From Escherichia coli 042 (GTDB taxonomy: Bacteria > Pseudomonadota > Gammaproteobacteria > Enterobacterales > Enterobacteriaceae): 64,000 bases of DNA. The translations under genes were made by a program, and so were the position numbers. The stretch lies in the NCBI RefSeq assembly GCF_000027125.1, contig NC_017626.1; one strand, 5' to 3'. Of this stretch, positions 3,803-15,773 are shown one piece after another. The notes under the pieces were generated by a model. It saw only the letters and a program-made list of their open reading frames with translations. It was not told where the DNA came from and did not search any database. Position 1 is the stretch's first letter; each line of letters begins with the position of its first letter.

Positions 3803-6800
3803 ATGGGCAAAGGAAGCAGTAAGGGGCATATCCCGCGCGAAGCGAAGGACAACCTGAAGTCCACGCAGTTGCTGAGTGTGATCGATGCCATCAGTGAAGG
3901 GCCGGTTGAAGGTCCGGTGGATGGCTTAAAAAGCGTGCTGCTGAACAGTACGCCGGTGCTGGACAGTGAGGGGAATACCAATATCTCCGGCGTCACGGTG
4001 GTGTTCCGGGCAGGCGAGCAGGAGCAGTCACCGCCGGAGGGATTTGAATCCTCCGGTTCCGAGACGGTGCTGGGTACGGAAGTGAAATATGACACGCCGA
4101 TCACCCGCACCATTACGTCGGCAAACATCGACCGTCTGCGCTTTACCTTCGGTGTACAGGCACTGGTGGAAACCACCTCAAAGGGTGACAGGAATCCGTC
4201 GGAAGTCCGTCTGCTGGTTCAGATACAGCGTAACGGTGGCTGGGTGACGGAAAAAGACATCACCATTAAGGGCAAAACCACCTCGCAGTATCTGGCCTCG
4301 GTGGTGGTGGGTAACCTGCCGCCGCGCCCGTTTAATATCCGGATGCGCAGGATGACGCCGGACAGCACCACAGACCAGCTGCAGAACAAAACGCTCTGGT
4401 CGTCATACACCGAAATCATCGATGTGAAACAGTGCTACCCGAACACGGCACTGGTCGGCGTGCAGGTGGACTCGGAACAGTTCGGCAGCCAGCAGGTGAG
4501 CCGTAATTATCATCTTCGCGGGCGCATTCTGCAGGTGCCGTCGAACTATAACCCGCAGACGCGGCAATACAGCGGTATCTGGGACGGAACGTTTAAGCCA
4601 GCATACAGCAACAACATGGCCTGGTGTCTGTGGGATATGCTGACCCATCCGCGCTACGGCATGGGGAAGCGTCTCGGTGCGGCGGATGTGGACAAATGGG
4701 CGCTGTATGTCATCGGCCAGAATTGCGACCAGTCGGTGCCGGACGGCTTTGGCGGCACGGAGCCGCGCATCACCTGTAATGCGTACCTGACCACACAGCG
4801 CAAGGCGTGGGATGTGCTCAGTGATTTCTGCTCGGCGATGCGCTGTATGCCAGTATGGAACGGGCAGACGCTGACGTTCGTGCAGGACCGACCGTCGGAT
4901 AAGGTGTGGACCTATAACCGCAGTAATGTGGTGATGCCGGATGATGGCGCACCGTTCCGCTACAGCTTCAGCGCCCTGAAAGACCGCCATAATGCCGTTG
5001 AGGTGAACTGGATTGACCCGAACAACGGCTGGGAGACGGCGACAGAGCTTGTGGAGGATACGCAGGCCATTGCCCGTTACGGTCGTAACGTCACGAAGAT
5101 GGATGCTTTTGGCTGTACCAGCCGGGGGCAGGCGCACCGCGCCGGGCTGTGGCTGATTAAAACGGAATTGCTGGAAACGCAGACCGTGGACTTCAGCGTG
5201 GGTGCAGAAGGGCTTCGCCATGTACCGGGCGATGTCATTGAAATCTGCGATGATGACTATGCGGGTATCAGCACCGGCGGGCGCGTGCTGGCGGTGAACA
5301 GCCAGACGCGGACACTGACGCTCGACCGTGAAATCACGCTGCCATCCTCCGGCACCACGCTGATAAGCCTGGTTGACGGACAGGGGAATCCGGTCAGCGT
5401 GGAGGTCCAGTCCGTCACCGACGGCGTGAAGGTAAAAGTGAGCCGGGTTCCTGATGGCGTTGCCGAGTACAGCGTGTGGGGGCTGAAGCTGCCGACGCTG
5501 CGCCAGCGCCTGTTCCGCTGCGTGAGTATCCGTGAGAATGACGACGGCACGTATGCCATCACCGCTGTGCAGCATGTGCCGGAGAAAGAGGCCATCGTGG
5601 ATAACGGGGCGCACTTTGACGGCGACCAGAGCGGCACGGTGAATGGTGTCACGCCGCCAGCAGTGCAGCACCTGACCGCAGAAGTCACCGCAGACAGCGG
5701 GGAATACCAGGTGCTGGCGCGCTGGGATACGCCGAAGGTGGTGAAGGGTGTGAGCTTTATGCTTCGCCTGACCGTGGCAGCGGATGACGGCAGTGAGCGG
5801 CTGGTCAGCACGGCCCGGACGACGGAAACCACATACCGCTTCAGGCAGCTGGCTCTGGGAAATTACAGTCTGACAGTCCGGGCGGTAAATGCGTGGGGGC
5901 AGCAGGGCGATCCGGCGTCGGTATCGTTCCGGATTGCCGCACCGGCAGCACCATCGCGGATTGAGCTGACGCCGGGCTATTTTCAGATAACCGCCACGCC
6001 GCATCTTGCGGTTTATGATCCGACTGTACAGTTTGAGTTCTGGTTCTCGGAAAATCGGATTGCGGATATCAGGCAGGTTGAAACCAGCGCGCGTTATCTT
6101 GGCACGGCGCTGTACTGGATAGCCGCCAGTATCAATATCAAACCGGGCCATGATTATTATTTTTACGTTCGCAGTGTGAACACCGTCGGCAAATCGACAT
6201 TCGTGGAGGCTGTCGGTCGGGCGAGCGATGATGCGGAAGGTTACCTGGATTTTTTCAAAGGCCAGATAACCGAATCCCATCTCGGCAAGGAGCTGCTGGA
6301 AAAAGTCGAGCTGACGGAGGATAACGCCAGCAAACTGGAGGAGTTTTCGAAAGAGTGGAAGGACGCCAACGATAAATGGAATGCCATGTGGGGCGTCAAA
6401 ATTGAGCAGACCGAAGACGGCAGGCATTATGTCGCGGGGCTTGGCCTTAGTATGGAGGATACGGAGGAAGGCAAACTGAGCCAGTTCCTGGTTGCCGCTA
6501 ACCGTATCGCGTTTATTGACCCGGCAAACGGGAATGAAACGCCGATGTTTGTGGCGCAGGGCAACCAGATATTCATGAACGAAGTGTTCCTGAAGTATCT
6601 GACGGCTCCCACCATTACCAGTGGCGGCAATCCTCCGGTATTTTCCCTGACACCGGACGGGCGGCTGACGGCGAAAAATGCCGATATCAGCGGTAACGTG
6701 AATGCGAACTCCGGGACGCTCAATAATGTCACGATTAACGAGAACTGTCGGGTTCTGGGAAAACTGTCCGCGAACCAGATTGAAGGCGATCTCGTTAAAA

Positions 6801-7198
6801 CAGTGGGCAAAGCTTTCCCCCGTGACTCCCGTGCACCGGAACGGTGGCCATCAGGGACCATTACCGTCAGGGTTTATGACGATCAGTCGTTTGACCGGCA
6901 AATTGTTATTCCAGCGGTGGCTTTCAGCGGTGCCAGACATGAACGGGAGAATAGCGATACTTATTCGTCATGCCGCCTGATAGTGAAGAAAAACGGGGCT
7001 GAAATTTATAACCGAACGGCTCTGGATAATACTCTGATTTACACGGGTGTTATTGATATGCCTGCAGGCAGTGGCGTAATGACACTGGAGTTTTCGGTAT
7101 CAGCATGGTGGGTAAATGGCTGGTATCCCACAGCAAGTATCAGCGATTTGCTGGTTGTGGTGATGAAGAAAGCCACCGCAGGCATCAGTATCAGCTGA
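3803..7198 (+). CDS. host specificity protein J (central tail fibre), lambda J-like
   Basis: 1131 aa (lambda J is 1132 aa); C-terminal region resembles the recalled lambda J receptor-binding end ([21 protein letters not shown] motif). Confidence 0.85.
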
Positions 7199-7265: not shown

Positions 7266-7865
7266 ATGCGTAAATTATGTGCTGTTATTCTGTCCGCAGT
7301 AGTCTGGCTGGTTGCCGCTGGTACGCCAGCGAGCGCAGCAGAGCATCAGTCCACACTAAGCGCCGGGTATCTTCAGGCCCATACTGATATGCCAGGCAGT
7401 GATGACCTGAAGGGCATTAACGTGAAATACCGTTATGAATTTACGGACACGCTGGGGCTGGTGACGTCATTCAGTTATGCCAATGCCAAAGATGAGCAAA
7501 AAACGCATTACAGCGATACCCGCTGGCATGAAGATTCAGTGCGTAACCGCTGGTTCAGCATGATGGCGGGGCCATCTGTACGCGTGAATGAATGGTTCAG
7601 TGCTTATGCGATGGCAGGTGTGGCTTACAGCCGTGTTTCGACGTTCTCCGGGGATTATCTCCGCGTAACTGACAACAAGGGGAAAACGCACGATGTGCTG
7701 ACCGGAAGTGATGACGATCGCCACAGCAACACGTCTCTGGCGTGGGGAGCTGGCGTGCAGTTTAACCCGACCGAATCCGTGGCCATTGATATTGCTTATG
7801 AAGGCTCCGGCAGTGGCGACTGGCGCACTGACGGTTTCATCGTGGGTGTCGGTTATAAGTTCTGA
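7266..7865 (+). CDS. lom: Lom/Ail/PagC-family outer membrane beta-barrel protein (lambda lom-like moron)
   Basis: 199 aa; signal peptide ending ASA; C-terminal ...GVGYKF aromatic terminus typical of OMPs; position between J and stf as in lambda. Confidence 0.8.
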   Translation: MRKLCAVILSAVVWLVAAGTPASAAEHQSTLSAGYLQAHTDMPGSDDLKGINVKYRYEFTDTLGLVTSFSYANAKDEQKTHYSDTRWHEDSVRNRWFSMMAGPSVRVNEWFSAYAMAGVAYSRVSTFSGDYLRVTDNKGKTHDVLTGSDDDRHSNTSLAWGAGVQFNPTESVAIDIAYEGSGSGDWRTDGFIVGVGYKF

Positions 7866-7923: not shown

Positions 7924-10305
7924 GTGGATATGGCAGCAGTAAAAATCTCAGGTGTGCTGAAAGATGGTGCGGGAAAACCAATACAGAACTGCACTATTCA
8001 ACTGAAGGCAAAGCGTAACAGCACCACGGTACTGGTGAACACGGTGGCCTCTGAAAATCCGGATGAAGCCGGGCGTTACAGCATGGATGTTGAGTATGGT
8101 CAGTACAGCGTCACCCTGCTGGTTGAAGGTTTTCCGCCTTCACATGCCGGGACCATTACCGTCTATGAAGGTTCCAGACCAGGTACGCTGAATGATTTTC
8201 TCGGTGCCATGACGGAAGATGATGTCATGCCGGAGGCATTGCGTCGTTTTGAGGAAATGGTGGAAGAAGCGGCACGCAACGCTGAAGCCGCCTCTCAGAG
8301 CGCAGCGGCGGCAAAGAAATCCGAAACTGCAGCGGCATCATCGAAGAACGCGGCGAAAACCTCAGAAACGAATGCAGCTAACAGCGCACAGGCGGCAGCG
8401 GCCTCGCAGACTGCATCGGCAAACTCCGCAACAGCAGCTAAAAAATCAGAAACCAACGCGAAAAATAGCGAGACAGCCGCAAAGACGAGCGAAACCAACG
8501 CAAAGTCCAGCCAGACGGCAGCGAAGACCAGCGAAACGAATGCCAAAGCCAGTGAAACTGCGGCAAAAAACAGCCAGGTTGCAGCAGCCCAAAGCGAGAG
8601 CGCGGCAGCCGGTTCTGCGACTTCAGCAGCTGGATCAGCAACTGCTACGGCTAACAGCCAGAAAGCTGCGAAGACGAGTGAAACTAACGCAAAGTCCAGC
8701 CAGACGGCAGCGAAGACCAGCGAAACGAATGCCAAAGCCAGTGAAACTGCGGCGAAAAGCAGTCAGGATGCAGCGGCTCAAAGCGAGAGTGCCGCAGCCA
8801 GTTCTGCAAGCGCGGCGGCTGCTTCTGCCACTGCATCAGCTAACAGTCAAAAAGCAGCAAAAACCAGTGAAACCAACGCAAAGGTGAGCGAAACAGCGGC
8901 AGCGAACTCAGCGAAAGCATCGGCAGCAAGCCAGACGGCAGCTAAAGCAAGCGAAGATGCAGCCAGAGAGTACGCAAGCCAGGCTGCGGAGCCGTATAAA
9001 TATGTCTTACAGCCGCTGCCTGATGTGTGGATACCATTTAACGATTCGCTGGATATGATTACGGGCTTTTCGCCGTCATATAAAAAAATTGTTATTGGTG
9101 ACGATGAAATAACGATGCCTGGCGACAAGATTGTTAAGTTTAAACGTGCATCGAAAGCAACCTATATTAACAAATCTGGTGTGCTGACAGAGGCTGCCAT
9201 TGACGAGCCACGATTTGAACGTGATGGCCTGCTTATTGAGGGGCAAAGAACAAACTACATGCTCAATTCGGAAAGCCCTGCCAGTTGGGGGCGATCTTCA
9301 AATATGGATGTGCCCGAAACAGGGACGGATAATTTTGGTTTTACCTATGGAAAGTTTGTCTGCAACGATTCTCTGATTGGGCAAACCTCAGCCATTAATA
9401 TGGCATCAATTGCTGCAACAAAGTCAGTTGATGTCTCAGGCGATAATAAACACGTGACAACCTCATGTCGTTTTAAAACAGAACTGCAGGTAAGGTTGCG
9501 TATCCGGTTTGATAAATATGACGGTAGCGCAACAACTTTTCTTGGTGATGCGTATATTGATACACAAACGCTTGAAATTAATATGACAGGCGGTGCTGCC
9601 TCAAGGATTACAGCGAGAGTCAGAAAGGACGAAGCTACCGGATGGATTTTTGCAGAGGCAACAATTCAGGCAATTGATGGGGAGCTAAAAATAGGCTCTC
9701 AGATACAGTATTCTCCTAAGCAGAGCGGGGCAACCGTATCTGGTGACTATATTTATCTGGCCACCCCACAAGTAGAAGATGGGCCTTGTGTATCATCTTT
9801 TATTATATCAGGAGCGACGGCGGCGACCCGCGCAAGCGATATAGTTACAGTTCCAATTAAGAATAATCTTTATAATCTTCCTTTTACGGTTCTTTGTGAG
9901 GTACATAAGAACTGGTATAAAACGCCAAATGCAGCGCCACGTGTTTTTGATACCGGCGGTCATCAAACCGGAGCGGCTATTATTCTTGGCTTCGGTCGTT
10001 CAACAGATTACGACGGATTTCCTTATTGCGATATTGGAGGAGCTAACAGACGGGTAAACGAAAACGCATCGCTTGAAAAAATGGTTATGGGGATGCGTGT
10101 AAAGTCAGAGCAGTCTACGTGCTCAGTAAGTAACGGGCATATATCCAGCGAAACAAAAACCACATGGTCCTGTATTCAGAACACCGCAATTATCCGTATT
10201 GGAGGCCAGACTACAGCCGGGTTACGTCATTTATTTGGTCATGTCAGGAATTTCAGAATATGGCACAAGGCATTGACTGATGCTCAGGTGGGGGAGTCAA
10301 TCTAA
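7924..10305 (+). CDS. side tail fibre protein (Stf-like) with collagen-like Ala/Ser/Thr repeat shaft and divergent C-terminal domain
   Basis: N-terminal ~100 aa match the recalled lambda Stf N-terminus (MA.VKISGVLKDG.GKP.QNCTIQLKA...); KTSETNAK repeat shaft; C-terminal half (from ~nt 9000) visibly lower GC. Confidence 0.75.
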   Translation: MDMAAVKISGVLKDGAGKPIQNCTIQLKAKRNSTTVLVNTVASENPDEAGRYSMDVEYGQYSVTLLVEGFPPSHAGTITVYEGSRPGTLNDFLGAMTEDDVMPEALRRFEEMVEEAARNAEAASQSAAAAKKSETAAASSKNAAKTSETNAANSAQAAAASQTASANSATAAKKSETNAKNSETAAKTSETNAKSSQTAAKTSETNAKASETAAKNSQVAAAQSESAAAGSATSAAGSATATANSQKAAKTSETNAKSSQTAAKTSETNAKASETAAKSSQDAAAQSESAAASSASAAAASATASANSQKAAKTSETNAKVSETAAANSAKASAASQTAAKASEDAAREYASQAAEPYKYVLQPLPDVWIPFNDSLDMITGFSPSYKKIVIGDDEITMPGDKIVKFKRASKATYINKSGVLTEAAIDEPRFERDGLLIEGQRTNYMLNSESPASWGRSSNMDVPETGTDNFGFTYGKFVCNDSLIGQTSAINMASIAATKSVDVSGDNKHVTTSCRFKTELQVRLRIRFDKYDGSATTFLGDAYIDTQTLEINMTGGAASRITARVRKDEATGWIFAEATIQAIDGELKIGSQIQYSPKQSGATVSGDYIYLATPQVEDGPCVSSFIISGATAATRASDIVTVPIKNNLYNLPFTVLCEVHKNWYKTPNAAPRVFDTGGHQTGAAIILGFGRSTDYDGFPYCDIGGANRRVNENASLEKMVMGMRVKSEQSTCSVSNGHISSETKTTWSCIQNTAIIRIGGQTTAGLRHLFGHVRNFRIWHKALTDAQVGESI
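8461..8900 (+). repeat. in-frame 189-bp tandem direct repeat (~2.3 copies) inside the side tail fibre gene
   Basis: CAAAGTCCAGCCAGACGGCAGCGAAGACCAGCGAAACGAATGCCAAAGCCAGTGAAACTGCGGC occurs at 8501 and 8690; unit starts near 8461, 8650, 8839. Confidence 0.75.
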
Positions 10306-10586
10306 TGAAAGATTTAACACTCAAATTTGCCGACAGGGCCGACTTTTCGGCCTTTATGGATAGCACTGGCTATTATGATGACGAGTCGATGCAGGATGAT
10401 ATTCTTATTGACGTGATAGGTAACGTGTACAAAGAAACCGGAGAACTGACTGAAGATGGCGAACCGGTATGTGTTAAGGAAGACGGATATTTTGTAAACG
10501 TGCGCATCATTAATGATTCGCAAATATCGTCATTATTCGATGAATACGTGGTTGCTGTTGAGCATCAACTTCGTGGCTGGATGTGA
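10305..10586 (+). CDS. hypothetical protein, translationally coupled to the tail fibre gene (possible fibre assembly/chaperone factor)
   Basis: 93 aa acidic protein; ATG overlaps the stf stop (TAATG); no recognised motif. Confidence 0.4.
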   Translation: MKDLTLKFADRADFSAFMDSTGYYDDESMQDDILIDVIGNVYKETGELTEDGEPVCVKEDGYFVNVRIINDSQISSLFDEYVVAVEHQLRGWM

Positions 10587-10595
10587 GGAAGAAAA

Positions 10596-11636
10596 ATGGC
10601 TACATCGACAGTAATTCCTGATGACATCAAAACGCTAAAATCCGACGTTAGCAAATTAAAAAACGATCAAGGAAGCTACGCAACAAAATTATATGTAGAC
10701 AGCAAAGATGAAATCGTTGGTGACTGGTCTGCTTCATGGTATCAGCAGGTATTGCCAACTAGCGGAGCTATATTTGGGAGAAAACTCCGCTCAACTCACA
10801 GGACGGCAGGTGTTGAGGATGCGTATTGCGAACTATACCTCAAAAAATGGATAGACAGTCCAGGTAACGCAATGGCGCGCCTTAACCTGAACGATAACGG
10901 GACAAACATTTGCTGGGACTTTACCAACCTTTATGGCGGTACGATGATTTTTCCCGGTGACAGCGGATACCTCAAAATGGGTAACTGCCTTATGTCATAC
11001 AGCAAGCGTGGAAGTAACGCGCTTATTAAATTTGATTACACCGACACATTACAGATCAAATATGCCAATCATGGGTCAACCATGACATTAAACACACAGG
11101 GAACCGCTTATGCTGGTGTTACTGCTCAATTGTGGGGCAACACCAGCCGTCCTGTTGTTTATGAAGTCGGTGTTGATGGTGGCGCTTATATGTTCTATGC
11201 GCAGAAAAATACCGATAACACCTATATGTTAAGCGTTAATGGTGCATGTCATGCCACCGCATTTAACCAGCATTCCGACCGGGATCTGAAAGACAACATT
11301 CAGGTGATCGATAATGCAACCGACCGCATCCGTAAAATGAACGGCTATACATACACGCTTAAAGAAAACGGTATGCCCTATGCTGGTGTCATTGCACAGG
11401 AAGCTCTGGAAGCAATCCCAGAAGTTGTAGGTTCCGCAATGAAATATCAGGACGGTGCGAGCGGATCGGAAGGTGAAGAAGGTGAACGTTATTACACAGT
11501 AGATTATTCTGGTGTTACTGGCTTGCTTGTTCAGGTAGCCAGAGAGTCAGACGACAGAATAACAGCACTGGAAGAAGAAAACGCAGAATTAAGACAAAGA
11601 TTATCTGCAATTGAGGCGGCGCTTGCGTCTAAATAA
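10596..11636 (+). CDS. tail fibre/spike protein with C-terminal intramolecular chaperone (peptidase S74-like) domain
   Basis: 346 aa; GAGGAAG SD upstream; C-terminal HSDRDLKDNI motif matching the S-D-x-R-x-K-x-N-I autocleavage signature, followed by a coiled-coil tail. Confidence 0.6.
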   Translation: MATSTVIPDDIKTLKSDVSKLKNDQGSYATKLYVDSKDEIVGDWSASWYQQVLPTSGAIFGRKLRSTHRTAGVEDAYCELYLKKWIDSPGNAMARLNLNDNGTNICWDFTNLYGGTMIFPGDSGYLKMGNCLMSYSKRGSNALIKFDYTDTLQIKYANHGSTMTLNTQGTAYAGVTAQLWGNTSRPVVYEVGVDGGAYMFYAQKNTDNTYMLSVNGACHATAFNQHSDRDLKDNIQVIDNATDRIRKMNGYTYTLKENGMPYAGVIAQEALEAIPEVVGSAMKYQDGASGSEGEEGERYYTVDYSGVTGLLVQVARESDDRITALEEENAELRQRLSAIEAALASK

Positions 11637-11642
11637 TATTAA

Positions 11643-11665
11643 GGGGCCGAGCGCCCCGTTTTATT
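11643..11665 (+). terminator. hairpin plus T tract after the fibre gene
   Basis: GGGGCCGAGCGCCCCG followed by TTTTATT. Confidence 0.4.
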
Positions 11666-11678
11666 GGGTAGGATGAAA

Positions 11679-11972
11679 ATGGATATAACACCTTTCCTTC
11701 ATGCGCTTTGTGCTGTGGCTGCGCAGCTACTGATTGGTCTTTTTACCGGGAACTGGGCTTACGGGGCGATAGCCGGTTGTACGTTCTTCATTGCGCGTGA
11801 ACACACCCAGGCAGAATATCGCTGGATCGAAATGTTCGGGCATGGCAAGCGAATGAATATGCCGTGGTGGGGCGGTTTTGATCCGCGTGCATGGGATGTG
11901 GCAAGCCTGATGGATTTTGCTGTGCCGGTGGTGGCGTGTCTGCTGGTCTGGCTGTTGGTTAATCGTGGGTGA
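11679..11972 (+). CDS. small hydrophobic (probably membrane) protein, unknown function; prophage moron position
   Basis: 97 aa from the ATG with AGGA 6 nt upstream (longest frame from 11664); two to three hydrophobic segments; no known motif. Confidence 0.4.
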   Translation: MDITPFLHALCAVAAQLLIGLFTGNWAYGAIAGCTFFIAREHTQAEYRWIEMFGHGKRMNMPWWGGFDPRAWDVASLMDFAVPVVACLLVWLLVNRG

Positions 11973-12323: not shown

Positions 12324-13181
12324 CTAATTGGGTGATGACAAATCCTGTGTATGGGTGTTTCCCTTTGTGCGTGCGTTGATGCTGGTAACGGTGAACGTCA
12401 TGATGAACACAACCGCGAATAAGACGACAATCGTCGGAGCTGGTGCACTGTCGATAAAAAAGGACAACCAGACACCAGTCATTGACACTATTACCGATAT
12501 GCCAATCGCCAGTAGGAGCGCAATATGAAAGCGTTGTGTCAGGAGTACCGCAATGGCGCCAGGCGCAATGAGCAGAGAAATGGAGAGAATGATACCTACC
12601 GCTTTCAGCGTCGCCACAATGGTCAGAGAGACCATGCACAGCAGCCCATAATGCAGACATCTCGTATGCAAACCGCTTACCTGCGCCTGTTGATAATCAA
12701 AGCTGAACAGCAAAAAATCCCGCCATTTTACGCTAATAACAAGTGTAACCAACCCGGCAATAATCACCGTCTGGATTATATCGCCGATGGTTACCCCGAG
12801 CATGTCGCCGAAAAGAATATGGTCAAGATGTACGTCTGGTTTGACTGCAATATACAAGATCAGACCTGCGGCAAACATGCCAGAAAAAACAATCCCCATC
12901 ACTGTATCTTGCTTGATTCGGCTGTTGTCTTTCAGGTATCCCGTCGCCACCGCGCAGAATACTCCGGCGACGAATGCCCCTGTAGCCAGAGGTAACCCCA
13001 GAATCCAGGCAAGCACGATGCCAGGAAAAACCGCATGACTCATCGCGTCACCCATCAGTGCCCAACCTTTCAGGACCAGAAAGACCGACAGCAGCGCACA
13101 GGGTATGGAAACTACCAGTGAAATCAGCAGTGCGTGACTCATAAAGGTGAACTGCAGTGGCTCCAGTAATAATGCCATCAT
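12324..13181 (-). CDS. sitD: Mn/Fe ABC transporter permease SitD
   Basis: 285 aa polytopic membrane protein; second of two paralogous permeases; 4-nt overlap with sitC. Confidence 0.85.
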   Translation of the reverse strand: MMALLLEPLQFTFMSHALLISLVVSIPCALLSVFLVLKGWALMGDAMSHAVFPGIVLAWILGLPLATGAFVAGVFCAVATGYLKDNSRIKQDTVMGIVFSGMFAAGLILYIAVKPDVHLDHILFGDMLGVTIGDIIQTVIIAGLVTLVISVKWRDFLLFSFDYQQAQVSGLHTRCLHYGLLCMVSLTIVATLKAVGIILSISLLIAPGAIAVLLTQRFHIALLLAIGISVIVSMTGVWLSFFIDSAPAPTIVVLFAVVFIMTFTVTSINARTKGNTHTQDLSSPN

Positions 13182-14035
13182 GAGCGATCCTCCAGCGCTT
13201 TATGCGCACGCCGACGATTTGCCAAAAGCCCATGGGTGGGCGCAAATACAAATGCTAAAAGAAACAGCAGTGTCTGCGCCACCACGATGATTCCACCTGT
13301 CGCGCCGTCCAGAAAGTAACTGACCCACGCGCCGAGGAAACTGGTTACACTGCCAATAGTTACAGCAATTATGAGCAGGCGGGGAAAATGATCGGTTAAC
13401 AACCATGCTGTTGCACCGGGAGTCACCACCAGACAGATCACCAGAAAGGCACCAACCGTTTGCAGCGCCGCAACGGTCGAAACCGACAGCAGGGTGAAGA
13501 AGAGGATTTTTAATCTGCCCGGATGCAATCCAATAGCACGAGCGTGATTCTCGTCGAAAAAGGTCACCATAAGATCTTTCCATTTGAAAAAAAGCACGAT
13601 GATCGAGAGAATGCCAATGATAGTGAGTTGCAGGATATCCGCCGGATCGATTGCCAGAATATTGCCCAGGACGATGGTCTGAATGTTCACGGATGTCGGG
13701 TTCAATGACACCATAAACAGCCCCAGGCCAAAAAAGGAGGAGAAGATCAGGCCGATGATGGCATCTTCTTTTAAGCGAGTGCGTTGGTTAAGAAACAGCA
13801 TGCTGCCCGCTGCCAGTCCGCCGGAAAAGAAGGCTCCCAGAGAAAACGGAAGCCCCAGCATATATGCCCCCGCAACACCCGGGACAATAGAGTGCGACAG
13901 CGCATCGCCAATCAGCGACCAGCCTTTTAGCATCAGATAGCATGACAGGAAAGCGCAGAGACCGCCGACCATCGCCGAGACCCACATCGCATTGAGCATA
14001 TATTCATAGCTGAAGGGTTCCAGTAGCACGTTCAT
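13178..14035 (-). CDS. sitC: Mn/Fe ABC transporter permease SitC
   Basis: 285 aa, ABC-3 type permease; overlaps sitB and sitD ends. Confidence 0.85.
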
Positions 14036-14859
14036 CTTGCTTCCCCCTGCACCGCTGACGGTCGATGTGCCACAAAAGGGTGTTCATCGTCAGTAATAAT
14101 GCTTTCTTCCGAGCCGTTAAGTGTGACATGGCGCAGTACGCCGCTAAAAGCCAGCTCCAGGTTCTCGGCTGTAAAAGTGGTGTCTGTCGGCCCGCTTGCC
14201 AGGACGGTGCCTTTGACCATGACCGTATAATCGCAAAATGTCGTGACTGAGCCGAGATTGTGCGTTGAGACAAGCATCGTCTTGCCTTCCGCGCGTAACT
14301 CCCTCAACAGGCTGATGATTTTCGCTTCGGTTTTCACATCAACGCCGGTAAAAGGTTCATCCAGCAGGATCACATCACCCTGCTGTGCAATCGCTCTCGC
14401 CAGAAAGACGCGTTTCTTTTGTCCACCGGAAAGCTCGCCGATTTGTCGATGGCGAAAATCCACCATATCGACACGTTCCAGCGCATCGGTGACAATCTGA
14501 CGATCCCTCTTTTTGGCTATACGCAACATACCCATGTGCCCATAGCGGCCCATCATCACCACATCTTCCACTAGTACAGGAAATGACCAGTCAACCTCTT
14601 CTGACTGAGGGACGTAGGCAACCAGGTTTTTCTGTAGCGCCTGTCGCGTGGGAATACCCAGAACAGATATCTTTCCGCTGGTCAGACGGACAAATCCCAT
14701 AATCGCTTTAAACAACGTCGATTTTCCGGAACCGTTTACCCCAACCAGAGCGGCAATAGATCCACTTGGTACTGTGAAGGATGCATCGCGCAGTGCTGTG
14801 TGCCCGTTACGCCAGGTGACAGTAACATCATTAACGACAATGCCCGCAGATTGCATCAT
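14032..14859 (-). CDS. sitB: Mn/Fe ABC transporter ATP-binding protein SitB
   Basis: 275 aa; Walker [13 protein letters not shown] signature LSGGQKKR, Walker B ILLDEP. Confidence 0.9.
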
Positions 14860-15773
14860 TATTTCTCCCTTTTCCCGGCTTTAATTCCCTGTACCAGCGT
14901 ACTGGTAGTAACCTTCAGAAGGTCGATATACGTAGGTACCGGGCCGTTTTCTGTGCTCAGGGAATCGACATAGAGTACACCGCCGTAGTGCGCGCCGGTT
15001 TCACGCGCAACCTGACGCGCTGGTTTATCGGAAATCGTACTCTCGCTAAAGACTGCCGGGATATGATTTTTCTTCACCATATCAACAACCTTACGTACCT
15101 GCTGCGGCGTGCCTTGTTGATCGGCATTAATCGGCCACAGATAAAGCTCTTTTAGCCCCAAATCGCGTGCGAGATAAGAAAAAGCCCCTTCACTGGTGAC
15201 CATCCATCGCTGATTCTCAGGGAGTTCAGCAATCTGCTTACGCAGGGGGGCAAGGGTTTGGGTAATCTTGGCTTTATAAGTATCGGCATTACGTTGGTAG
15301 GTTTGTGCATTTGCCGGATCGTATTTTATCAACGCATCACGAATATTATCGACATAAATCAGAGCATTATCTGGCGACATCCAGGCATGGGGGTTAGGTT
15401 TGCCCTCATAGGGTCCTTCGGTGATCCCTACTGGCGTCACACCCGAAGAGACAATTACTTCTGGAACCCCATTGAGATGTTGGTAAAAGCGTTGGAACCA
15501 CAATTCCAGATTCATACCATTGGCGAGAATCAGTTGTGCCCCCTGCGCACGTTTAATATCTCCAGGGGTAGGCTGATACTCATGAATTTCTGCACCAGGC
15601 TTGGTTATGGATGAGACTTCTGCAGCATCTCCAGCCACGTTTTTGGCCATATCCGCGATGATGGTAAATGTTGTAATGACCTTGAATTTTTCAGTTGCAC
15701 TTGCCTGAAATGCGATCGAGCAGGTGAGGGCGAGGCACCCCAAGAGCATGGTTACTTTTTTTATTGAGTGCAT
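14859..15773 (-). CDS. sitA: periplasmic Mn/Fe-binding protein SitA (cluster 9 / TroA-like)
   Basis: 304 aa with signal peptide; first gene of a four-gene co-directional operon. Confidence 0.85.

Follow-up and report, generated by a model that had tools for sequence, protein, structure and literature searches.

The side tail fibre gene and its heptad tract

The window, a stretch of 64,000 nucleotides of Escherichia coli 042 (contig NC_017626.1), carries an stf-like gene downstream of J-type tip attachment protein domains (3803-7198) and an Ail_Lom (lom) match (7266-7865), so that the gene order is J-lom-stf, as in lambda. The gene, its parts and the module that follows it are:

7930..10305, + strand: side tail fibre gene (stf-like), 791 aa from the ATG at 7930 (ORF, PF08400, phrog_1419)
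7936..8214, + strand: N-terminal collar domain (residues 3-95), which docks the fibre on the tail (9e7m_Ta match; role according to PMC12617516)
8278..8991, + strand: Ala/Ser-rich tract of 34 heptads with a 21-bp sub-period, the predicted coiled-coil shaft or PCoil (composition; AF2)
8992..10305, + strand: distal non-repetitive part of the fibre with a GTA_spike_fiber domain (NF048003, residues 435-635; phrog_5939, residues 370-791)
10305..11636, + strand: downstream fibre module, comprising an ORF of 93 aa and a fibre protein of 346 aa that carries a Peptidase_S74 chaperone domain

The ORF listing begins the gene at GTG 7924, giving 793 aa; annotated relatives start at ATG. The PF08400 N-terminal domain was recognized in the fibre protein with an E value of 7.3e-67 and 223.9 bits (cut-off 26.6), phrog_1419 spans the full length of the protein, and residues 3-95 match the PDB chain 9e7m_Ta, "Tail fiber protein" (E 7.5e-49). 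Judged by name and sequence, 9e7m_Ta is the collar domain at the N terminus of Ur-lambda Stf, as described in PMC12617516. A side tail fibre is also what had been proposed from the sequence alone, and the PF08400 domain, the collar match and the position after J and lom all agree with it. The fibre resembles Ur-lambda Stf (PDB 9e7m/9mgh; PMC12617516) in its collar domain, in the J-lom-stf order and in the succession of collar, linker and proximal coiled coil, but differs from it in having neither a gp37-like tip nor a downstream Tfa chaperone gene and in carrying the GTA_spike_fiber domain, the 93-aa ORF and the S74-chaperone fibre gene. A gp37-like tip with Tfa defines lambda Stf proper rather than the wider PF08400 family, and the gene is a PF08400-family side tail fibre of lambda type. 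The 791-aa protein, read from the ATG, shares 100% identity with cluster P0004, a group of 4,554 member sequences. Of 5,426 complete E. coli genomes, about 960 contain the region at a coverage of at least 80%; it also occurs in isolated phages, among them HannyBb, Tritos and 2G7b.

Residues 117-354 form an unbroken run of 34 heptads (consensus S-[EAQ]-T-[AN]-A-[KA]-x), in which position 1 is Ser in 32 heptads, position 5 is Ala in 30 and position 4 is Ala or Asn in 32. The 238-residue tract consists of 37% Ala, 19% Ser and 11% Thr, contains the KTSETNAK motifs that had led it to be described as an Ala/Ser/Thr-rich repeat peptide, and shows periods of 21 and 42 bp in its DNA (Tandem Repeats Finder, TRF, and a second repeat finder). 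The core of a coiled coil requires small residues with 3-4 spacing, a requirement that the spacing of Ser-1 and Ala-5 fits. A single-chain, single-sequence AF2 model placed helices over residues 99-228 and 237-352 (pLDDT mostly 80-92), broke the helix at the Gly-containing heptads between them (residues 229-236) and folded the chain back into a helical hairpin. We consider this fold-back probably an artefact of the single chain rather than a hinge, because the authors of the Ur-lambda study report the same kind of misfolding, full-length Ur-lambda Stf being similarly misfolded by AlphaFold3 (PMC12617516).

Two described proteins help to place the tract. In Ur-lambda Stf, a collar (residues 1-91) and a linker (92-101) precede a proximal coiled coil at residues 102-393 (PMC12617516). 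Ghosh et al. 2012 gave the name PCoil to the Ala/Ser-rich tract that follows PfN; the PCoil of EPclA is alpha-helical by CD, the PfN-PCoil fragment is mainly trimeric by SEC-MALLS, and PCoil lengths vary among homologues by multiples of seven residues (PMC3368898). Like the PCoil of EPclA and EPclB, the present tract lies directly after PF08400 (PfN), is rich in Ala and Ser, consists of small-core heptads and varies in length by multiples of seven, in steps of 63 residues (proteins of 728, 791 and 854 aa) or 14 residues (777 aa); its helicity is an AF2 prediction. Unlike in EPclA/EPclB, what comes after the coiled coil is a globular distal domain and not a collagen triple helix. The repeat had been placed in the "shaft" of the fibre, and this location holds up, the heptad tract matching the proximal coiled coil of Stf (PMC12617516, PMC3368898); the shaft would be this PCoil. 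From the SEC-MALLS data on EPclA and the Ur-lambda structure we infer that the fibre is a trimer. Searches of Pfam, NCBIfam and PHROGs gave no family specific to the repeat tract, only whole-protein tail-fibre PHROGs. Low-complexity matches of the tract to DnaX, SMC and similar models were weak, as were PDB matches to the N-terminal regions of three "Depolymerase" chains (E about 0.002), which carry no weight as structural evidence.

The 189-bp repeat

Within the heptad tract lies a longer repeat, whose elements are:

8467..8655, + strand: repeat unit 1, 63 codons or 9 heptads (TRF, repeat finder, unit alignment)
8656..8844, + strand: repeat unit 2, identical to unit 1 at 161/189 bases
8845..8886, + strand: stub of a third unit, ~2 heptads, followed by divergence (TRF, unit alignment)
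8497..8564, + strand: 68-bp exact core, copy 1, the putative site of unequal exchange (junctions of the one- and three-unit alleles fall here)
8686..8753, + strand: 68-bp exact core, copy 2 (offset comparison)

TRF reports a period of 189 bp over 8467-8883 (2.2 copies, 84% matches, 0% indels, score 603), and the second repeat finder pairs 8445-8633 with 8634-8822 at 83%. Both agree with the period given by the sequence-only reading, which had also noticed a 64-mer recurring exactly at 8501 and 8690; the identity in fact extends to 68 bp (8497-8564 and 8686-8753). When aligned in codon and heptad register, the two units differ by 15 synonymous and 9 non-synonymous codon changes. The unit starts first suggested, 8461, 8650 and 8839, describe the same repeat with its phase shifted by 6 bp, but the third of these units is merely a stub: about 42 bp resemble the start of a unit and are followed by generic heptads.

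Since the whole region has a 21-bp sub-period, offset 189 was compared with other multiples of 21. Identity over 8280-8990 was 64% at offset 189 against 46-53% at the control offsets (47-53% at 21, 42, 210 and 378). In 300 shuffles that preserved the codon composition at each heptad position, 189-nt matches reached at most 124 (mean 113), compared with 161 observed, and exact runs at most 23 (mean 13.8), compared with 68 observed. The 189-bp tandem repeat exceeds chance.

The period is a multiple of 21 and not just of 3, so gain or loss of a unit, which consists of whole heptads, would preserve the register of the coiled coil as well as the reading frame. In the arrangement that we propose, the fibre trimer would be anchored on the tail by its collar domain, while the rod formed by the heptad tract would keep the distal receptor-binding part away from the tail. 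Coiled coils rise by about 0.15 nm per residue, and each unit (63 residues x about 0.15 nm) would change the length of the shaft by about 9 nm.

Copy-number alleles among relatives

In-frame change of copy number, by slippage or recombination, had been predicted from the period, and relatives do carry one, two or three units, in natural alleles of 728, 791 and 854 aa separated by exact steps of 63 residues:

854 aa (791+63): 3 units; three proteins, draft assemblies only (for example GCA_016595135.1)
791/790 aa: 2 units; dominant, about 960 complete genomes
777 aa: 2 units minus 2 heptads; one protein, P0121
728 aa (791-63): 1 unit; complete genome CB209 and the 219-member cluster P0123

In a second protein search, longer alleles outranked the class of the 728-aa query itself, so that its member counts are cluster sizes and no clean census. 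The 777-aa allele lacks 14 residues (two heptads), lost between the 42-bp sub-repeats of unit 2. The TEDD and EPYK motifs lie 196, 259 or 322 residues apart, each distance being divisible by 7, and wherever shared flanking motifs allowed a length difference to be measured, it was a multiple of 7 residues. The 93-aa ORF and the S74 fibre gene also lie downstream of the 728-aa and 854-aa alleles. The complete genome MSB1_4I (protein of 738 aa) and phage IdasGreatGrand (731 aa) also have a single unit, joined to other distal domains. Among more distant Stf proteins, those of PhiR49_2 and Lambda_2E9 are shorter by 15 heptads, and that of PhiR70_1 has a differently composed tract of comparable length and a different distal end.

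The junctions of the variant alleles point to where the units were exchanged. In the DNA of L005, which carries an 854-aa allele, the extra unit has the structure A2+core+B1, that is, the 5' variants of unit 2, the core and the 3' variants of unit 1. A synthetic one-unit query recovered the 728-aa allele in the complete genome CB209 (deposited twice), where it agrees at 2176 of 2187 positions with the gene of the window, once a unit is taken out of the latter. The single unit of CB209, like that of MSB1_4I, is A1+core+B2 with one switch point, inside the core. The one- and three-unit structures are the two reciprocal products of exchange within the 68-bp core, which supports the recombination or slippage first suggested. 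One-unit alleles could in principle be ancestral, but the clean switch from A1 to B2 makes this unlikely.

A different account holds that the length variants are assembly errors or products of exchange between prophages, and that the repeat is a static relic of a duplication with no ongoing dynamics. The three-unit alleles give it some purchase: they are confined to draft assemblies, a synthetic three-unit query found none in the 5,426 complete genomes, and, because of this confinement to drafts, they could have been produced by a loop in the de Bruijn graph that passes through the 68-bp core. Each of the three 854-aa proteins carries a private, allele-specific substitution in both of its first two units, which suggests separate events, although a real duplication and a graph loop would fit these substitutions equally. 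Exchange between prophages is plausible in genomes where the region matches at a median of 2 and a maximum of 13 places per E. coli genome, and the unit of IdasGreatGrand is an interleaved mosaic, not a clean A1/B2 hybrid. The one-unit form, however, is present in closed genomes (2 distinct ones among the best 60 matches listed) and in an isolated phage genome, the 728-aa cluster has 219 members, and CB209 shows only 11 differences in 2187 positions besides a clean loss of one unit with its single switch in the core. We regard this account of the variants as very improbable.

Age, dynamics and standing of the duplication

Across six alleles, orthologous units are 93-99% identical and paralogous units ~84%, so the duplication predates the divergence of the alleles; concerted evolution between the units was rejected on the same comparison. 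The 68-bp exact core is limited to the allele group of the window, exact runs elsewhere being 23-30 bp, and it is from this group that the clean derivatives with one or three units come, with the exception of MSB1_4I, which shares the repeat region and differs in its distal part. Such a distribution fits homology-dependent unequal exchange or slippage, between which the data do not separate. We consider it highly probable that the repeat is an old in-frame duplication of nine heptads (63 residues) in the PCoil of Stf that occasionally yields one- or three-unit alleles. Unequal homologous exchange or replication slippage in the 68-bp core would give rise to the occasional 728-aa and 854-aa forms, by an enzymology that we infer.

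The nearest parallels among tandemly duplicated fibre genes come from two other phages and concern different parts of the fibre. An in-frame tandem duplication in T4 gene 37, reportedly described by Tetart et al. in 1996 (cited in PMC6365445), is said to have changed infectivity. In the Enterococcus phage EfV12-phi1, an in-frame tandem duplication of 1.8 kb in a fibre gene has variable copy number, and such tail-fibre duplications arose under host resistance (PMC6365445). Like both of these, the present repeat is an in-frame tandem duplication of part of a fibre gene and varies in copy number. Those duplications, however, arose under selection, altered infectivity and lie close to the adhesin, whereas here the unit is an ancient 189-bp piece of coiled-coil shaft.

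The precedent of EfV12-phi1 speaks for treating the repeat as a contingency locus, in which frequent copy switching in phage or lysogen populations would tune the reach of the fibre to O-antigen or capsule and would be selected for switchability. So do the in-frame, register-preserving units with their 68-bp exact core and the existence of one-, two- and three-unit alleles, the three 854-aa proteins appearing independent. Contingency loci, though, have units of 1-9 bp that shift the frame or promoter spacing, and their length varies frequently within and between strains. Here the unit has 189 bp and stays in frame, its copies are just 85% identical with conserved orthologues and no concerted evolution, and the exact runs of most alleles are merely 23-30 bp. 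The two-unit form dominates, in about 960 complete genomes, against 2 complete genomes with one unit among the best 60 matches and none with three. Copy-number change is rare rather than frequent, and variants this rare give no evidence of adaptive use of length change. We find frequent, selected switching very improbable. A related proposal, equally doubtful in our view, would make the nine-heptad block a modular spacer whose copy number (1-3, with fine steps of two heptads through the 42-bp sub-repeats) is selected for reach against O-antigen or capsule thickness, the homogenized 68-bp core being kept for evolvability.

As an old duplication with occasional derivatives, the repeat is an ordinary member of a described class, the Stf PCoil whose length varies by multiples of a heptad. 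It departs from EPclA/EPclB in its discrete higher-order repeat of nine heptads with one-, two- and three-unit alleles. Lambda orf-401 shares KTSETNA-type heptads with this fibre, and on inspection of its heptads we noticed no block duplication of this kind. Full-text literature searches, none aimed specifically at the repeat, gave no description of this 63-residue repeat. Our addition is limited to the documented one-, two- and three-unit series and its junctions, and its significance beyond annotation is small. The 728/791/854-aa series is a natural set for relating shaft length to adsorption by the side tail fibre, and engineered Stf fibres could use the unit as a spacer that preserves the register. 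For annotation, the number of units in this gene can be miscounted in short-read assemblies, and the repeat tract accounts for two long spurious ORFs:

8219..8887, + strand: spurious 222-aa Arg/Gln/Pro-rich ORF in an alternative frame (ORF listing)
8295..8735, - strand: spurious 146-aa Ala/Phe/Val-rich antisense ORF (ORF listing; like orf206b)

Spurious ORFs of this kind had been ascribed to the 189-bp duplication. They exist, but their cause is the T-poor tract and not the duplication as such: T makes up 8.8% of the tract against 25% of the whole window, the codon usage is of low complexity, and the +1 frame has 1 stop in 257 codons. We rejected both as genes, as they lie wholly within a well-supported gene whose units differ in the Stf frame mostly at synonymous sites (15 against 9). 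Gene callers may nevertheless report them; the lambda reference record annotates the analogous orf206b antisense to orf-401.

Indels in the heptad tract

The 777-aa Stf allele P0121 lacks 14 residues (two heptads), deleted between 42-bp sub-repeats of unit 2 of the 189-bp repeat, at a site equivalent to approximately 8690-8731 of the window. We conclude that, besides changes of whole units, the nested repeats also produce indels that preserve the heptad register.

Distal fibre region and its matches in other records

Compared with the Stf of lambda, that of the window has neither a gp37-like tip nor Tfa, and its distal 435 aa include a GTA_spike_fiber domain. Two further ORFs follow it, in this order, within the region 8992-11636:

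Window 8992-11636 (within), after Stf: conserved 93-aa ORF, phrog_1361
Window 8992-11636 (within), after the 93-aa ORF: 346-aa fibre protein carrying an intramolecular chaperone domain (Peptidase_S74)

Stf and the downstream module may form a two-protein or branched fibre. In a search with this region of the window as query, a 106-kb plasmid record (H44, NZ_OZ369344.1) and the 108-kb PhiR41_1 (H110) each matched at ~88% from mid-tract onward (query 328-1051 and 328-988, respectively), the N-terminal part of the query being uncovered in both. The H44 product is annotated as a "phage head spike fiber domain-containing protein". The comparison suggests that the module has been exchanged among different phage types.

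Genes between the fibre module and ompN

The fibre genes are followed by a small ORF and by sit transporter genes:

Window 11664-11972: 102-aa ORF, flanked by the fibre genes and by sitD
Window 12324-15773, - strand: four ORFs, sitD and sitC by match, and presumably sitB and sitA

The 102-aa ORF looks hydrophobic by eye and had no match in an NCBIfam search; a 97-aa hypothetical protein occupies the same position in related loci. The sit ORFs come directly after the tail-fibre module and precede homologues of ompN, nifJ and ldhA. Because they follow the fibre module, and because SitD and SitC are likewise positioned past the fibre genes in the isolated phage record LR595860, this iron/manganese transporter looks like prophage cargo.

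Antisense ORFs

Long ORFs run antisense to J and to the heptad tract:

Window 4403-6427, - strand: 674-aa ORF, antisense through the J gene
Lambda locus L009 (from NC_001416) 1248-1868, - strand: orf206b, annotated in the lambda reference genome on the strand opposite the orf-401 heptad tract

The ORF opposite J, although strikingly long, is almost certainly spurious. Lambda orf206b and the window ORF at 8295-8735 (- strand) are of one kind, driven by composition.
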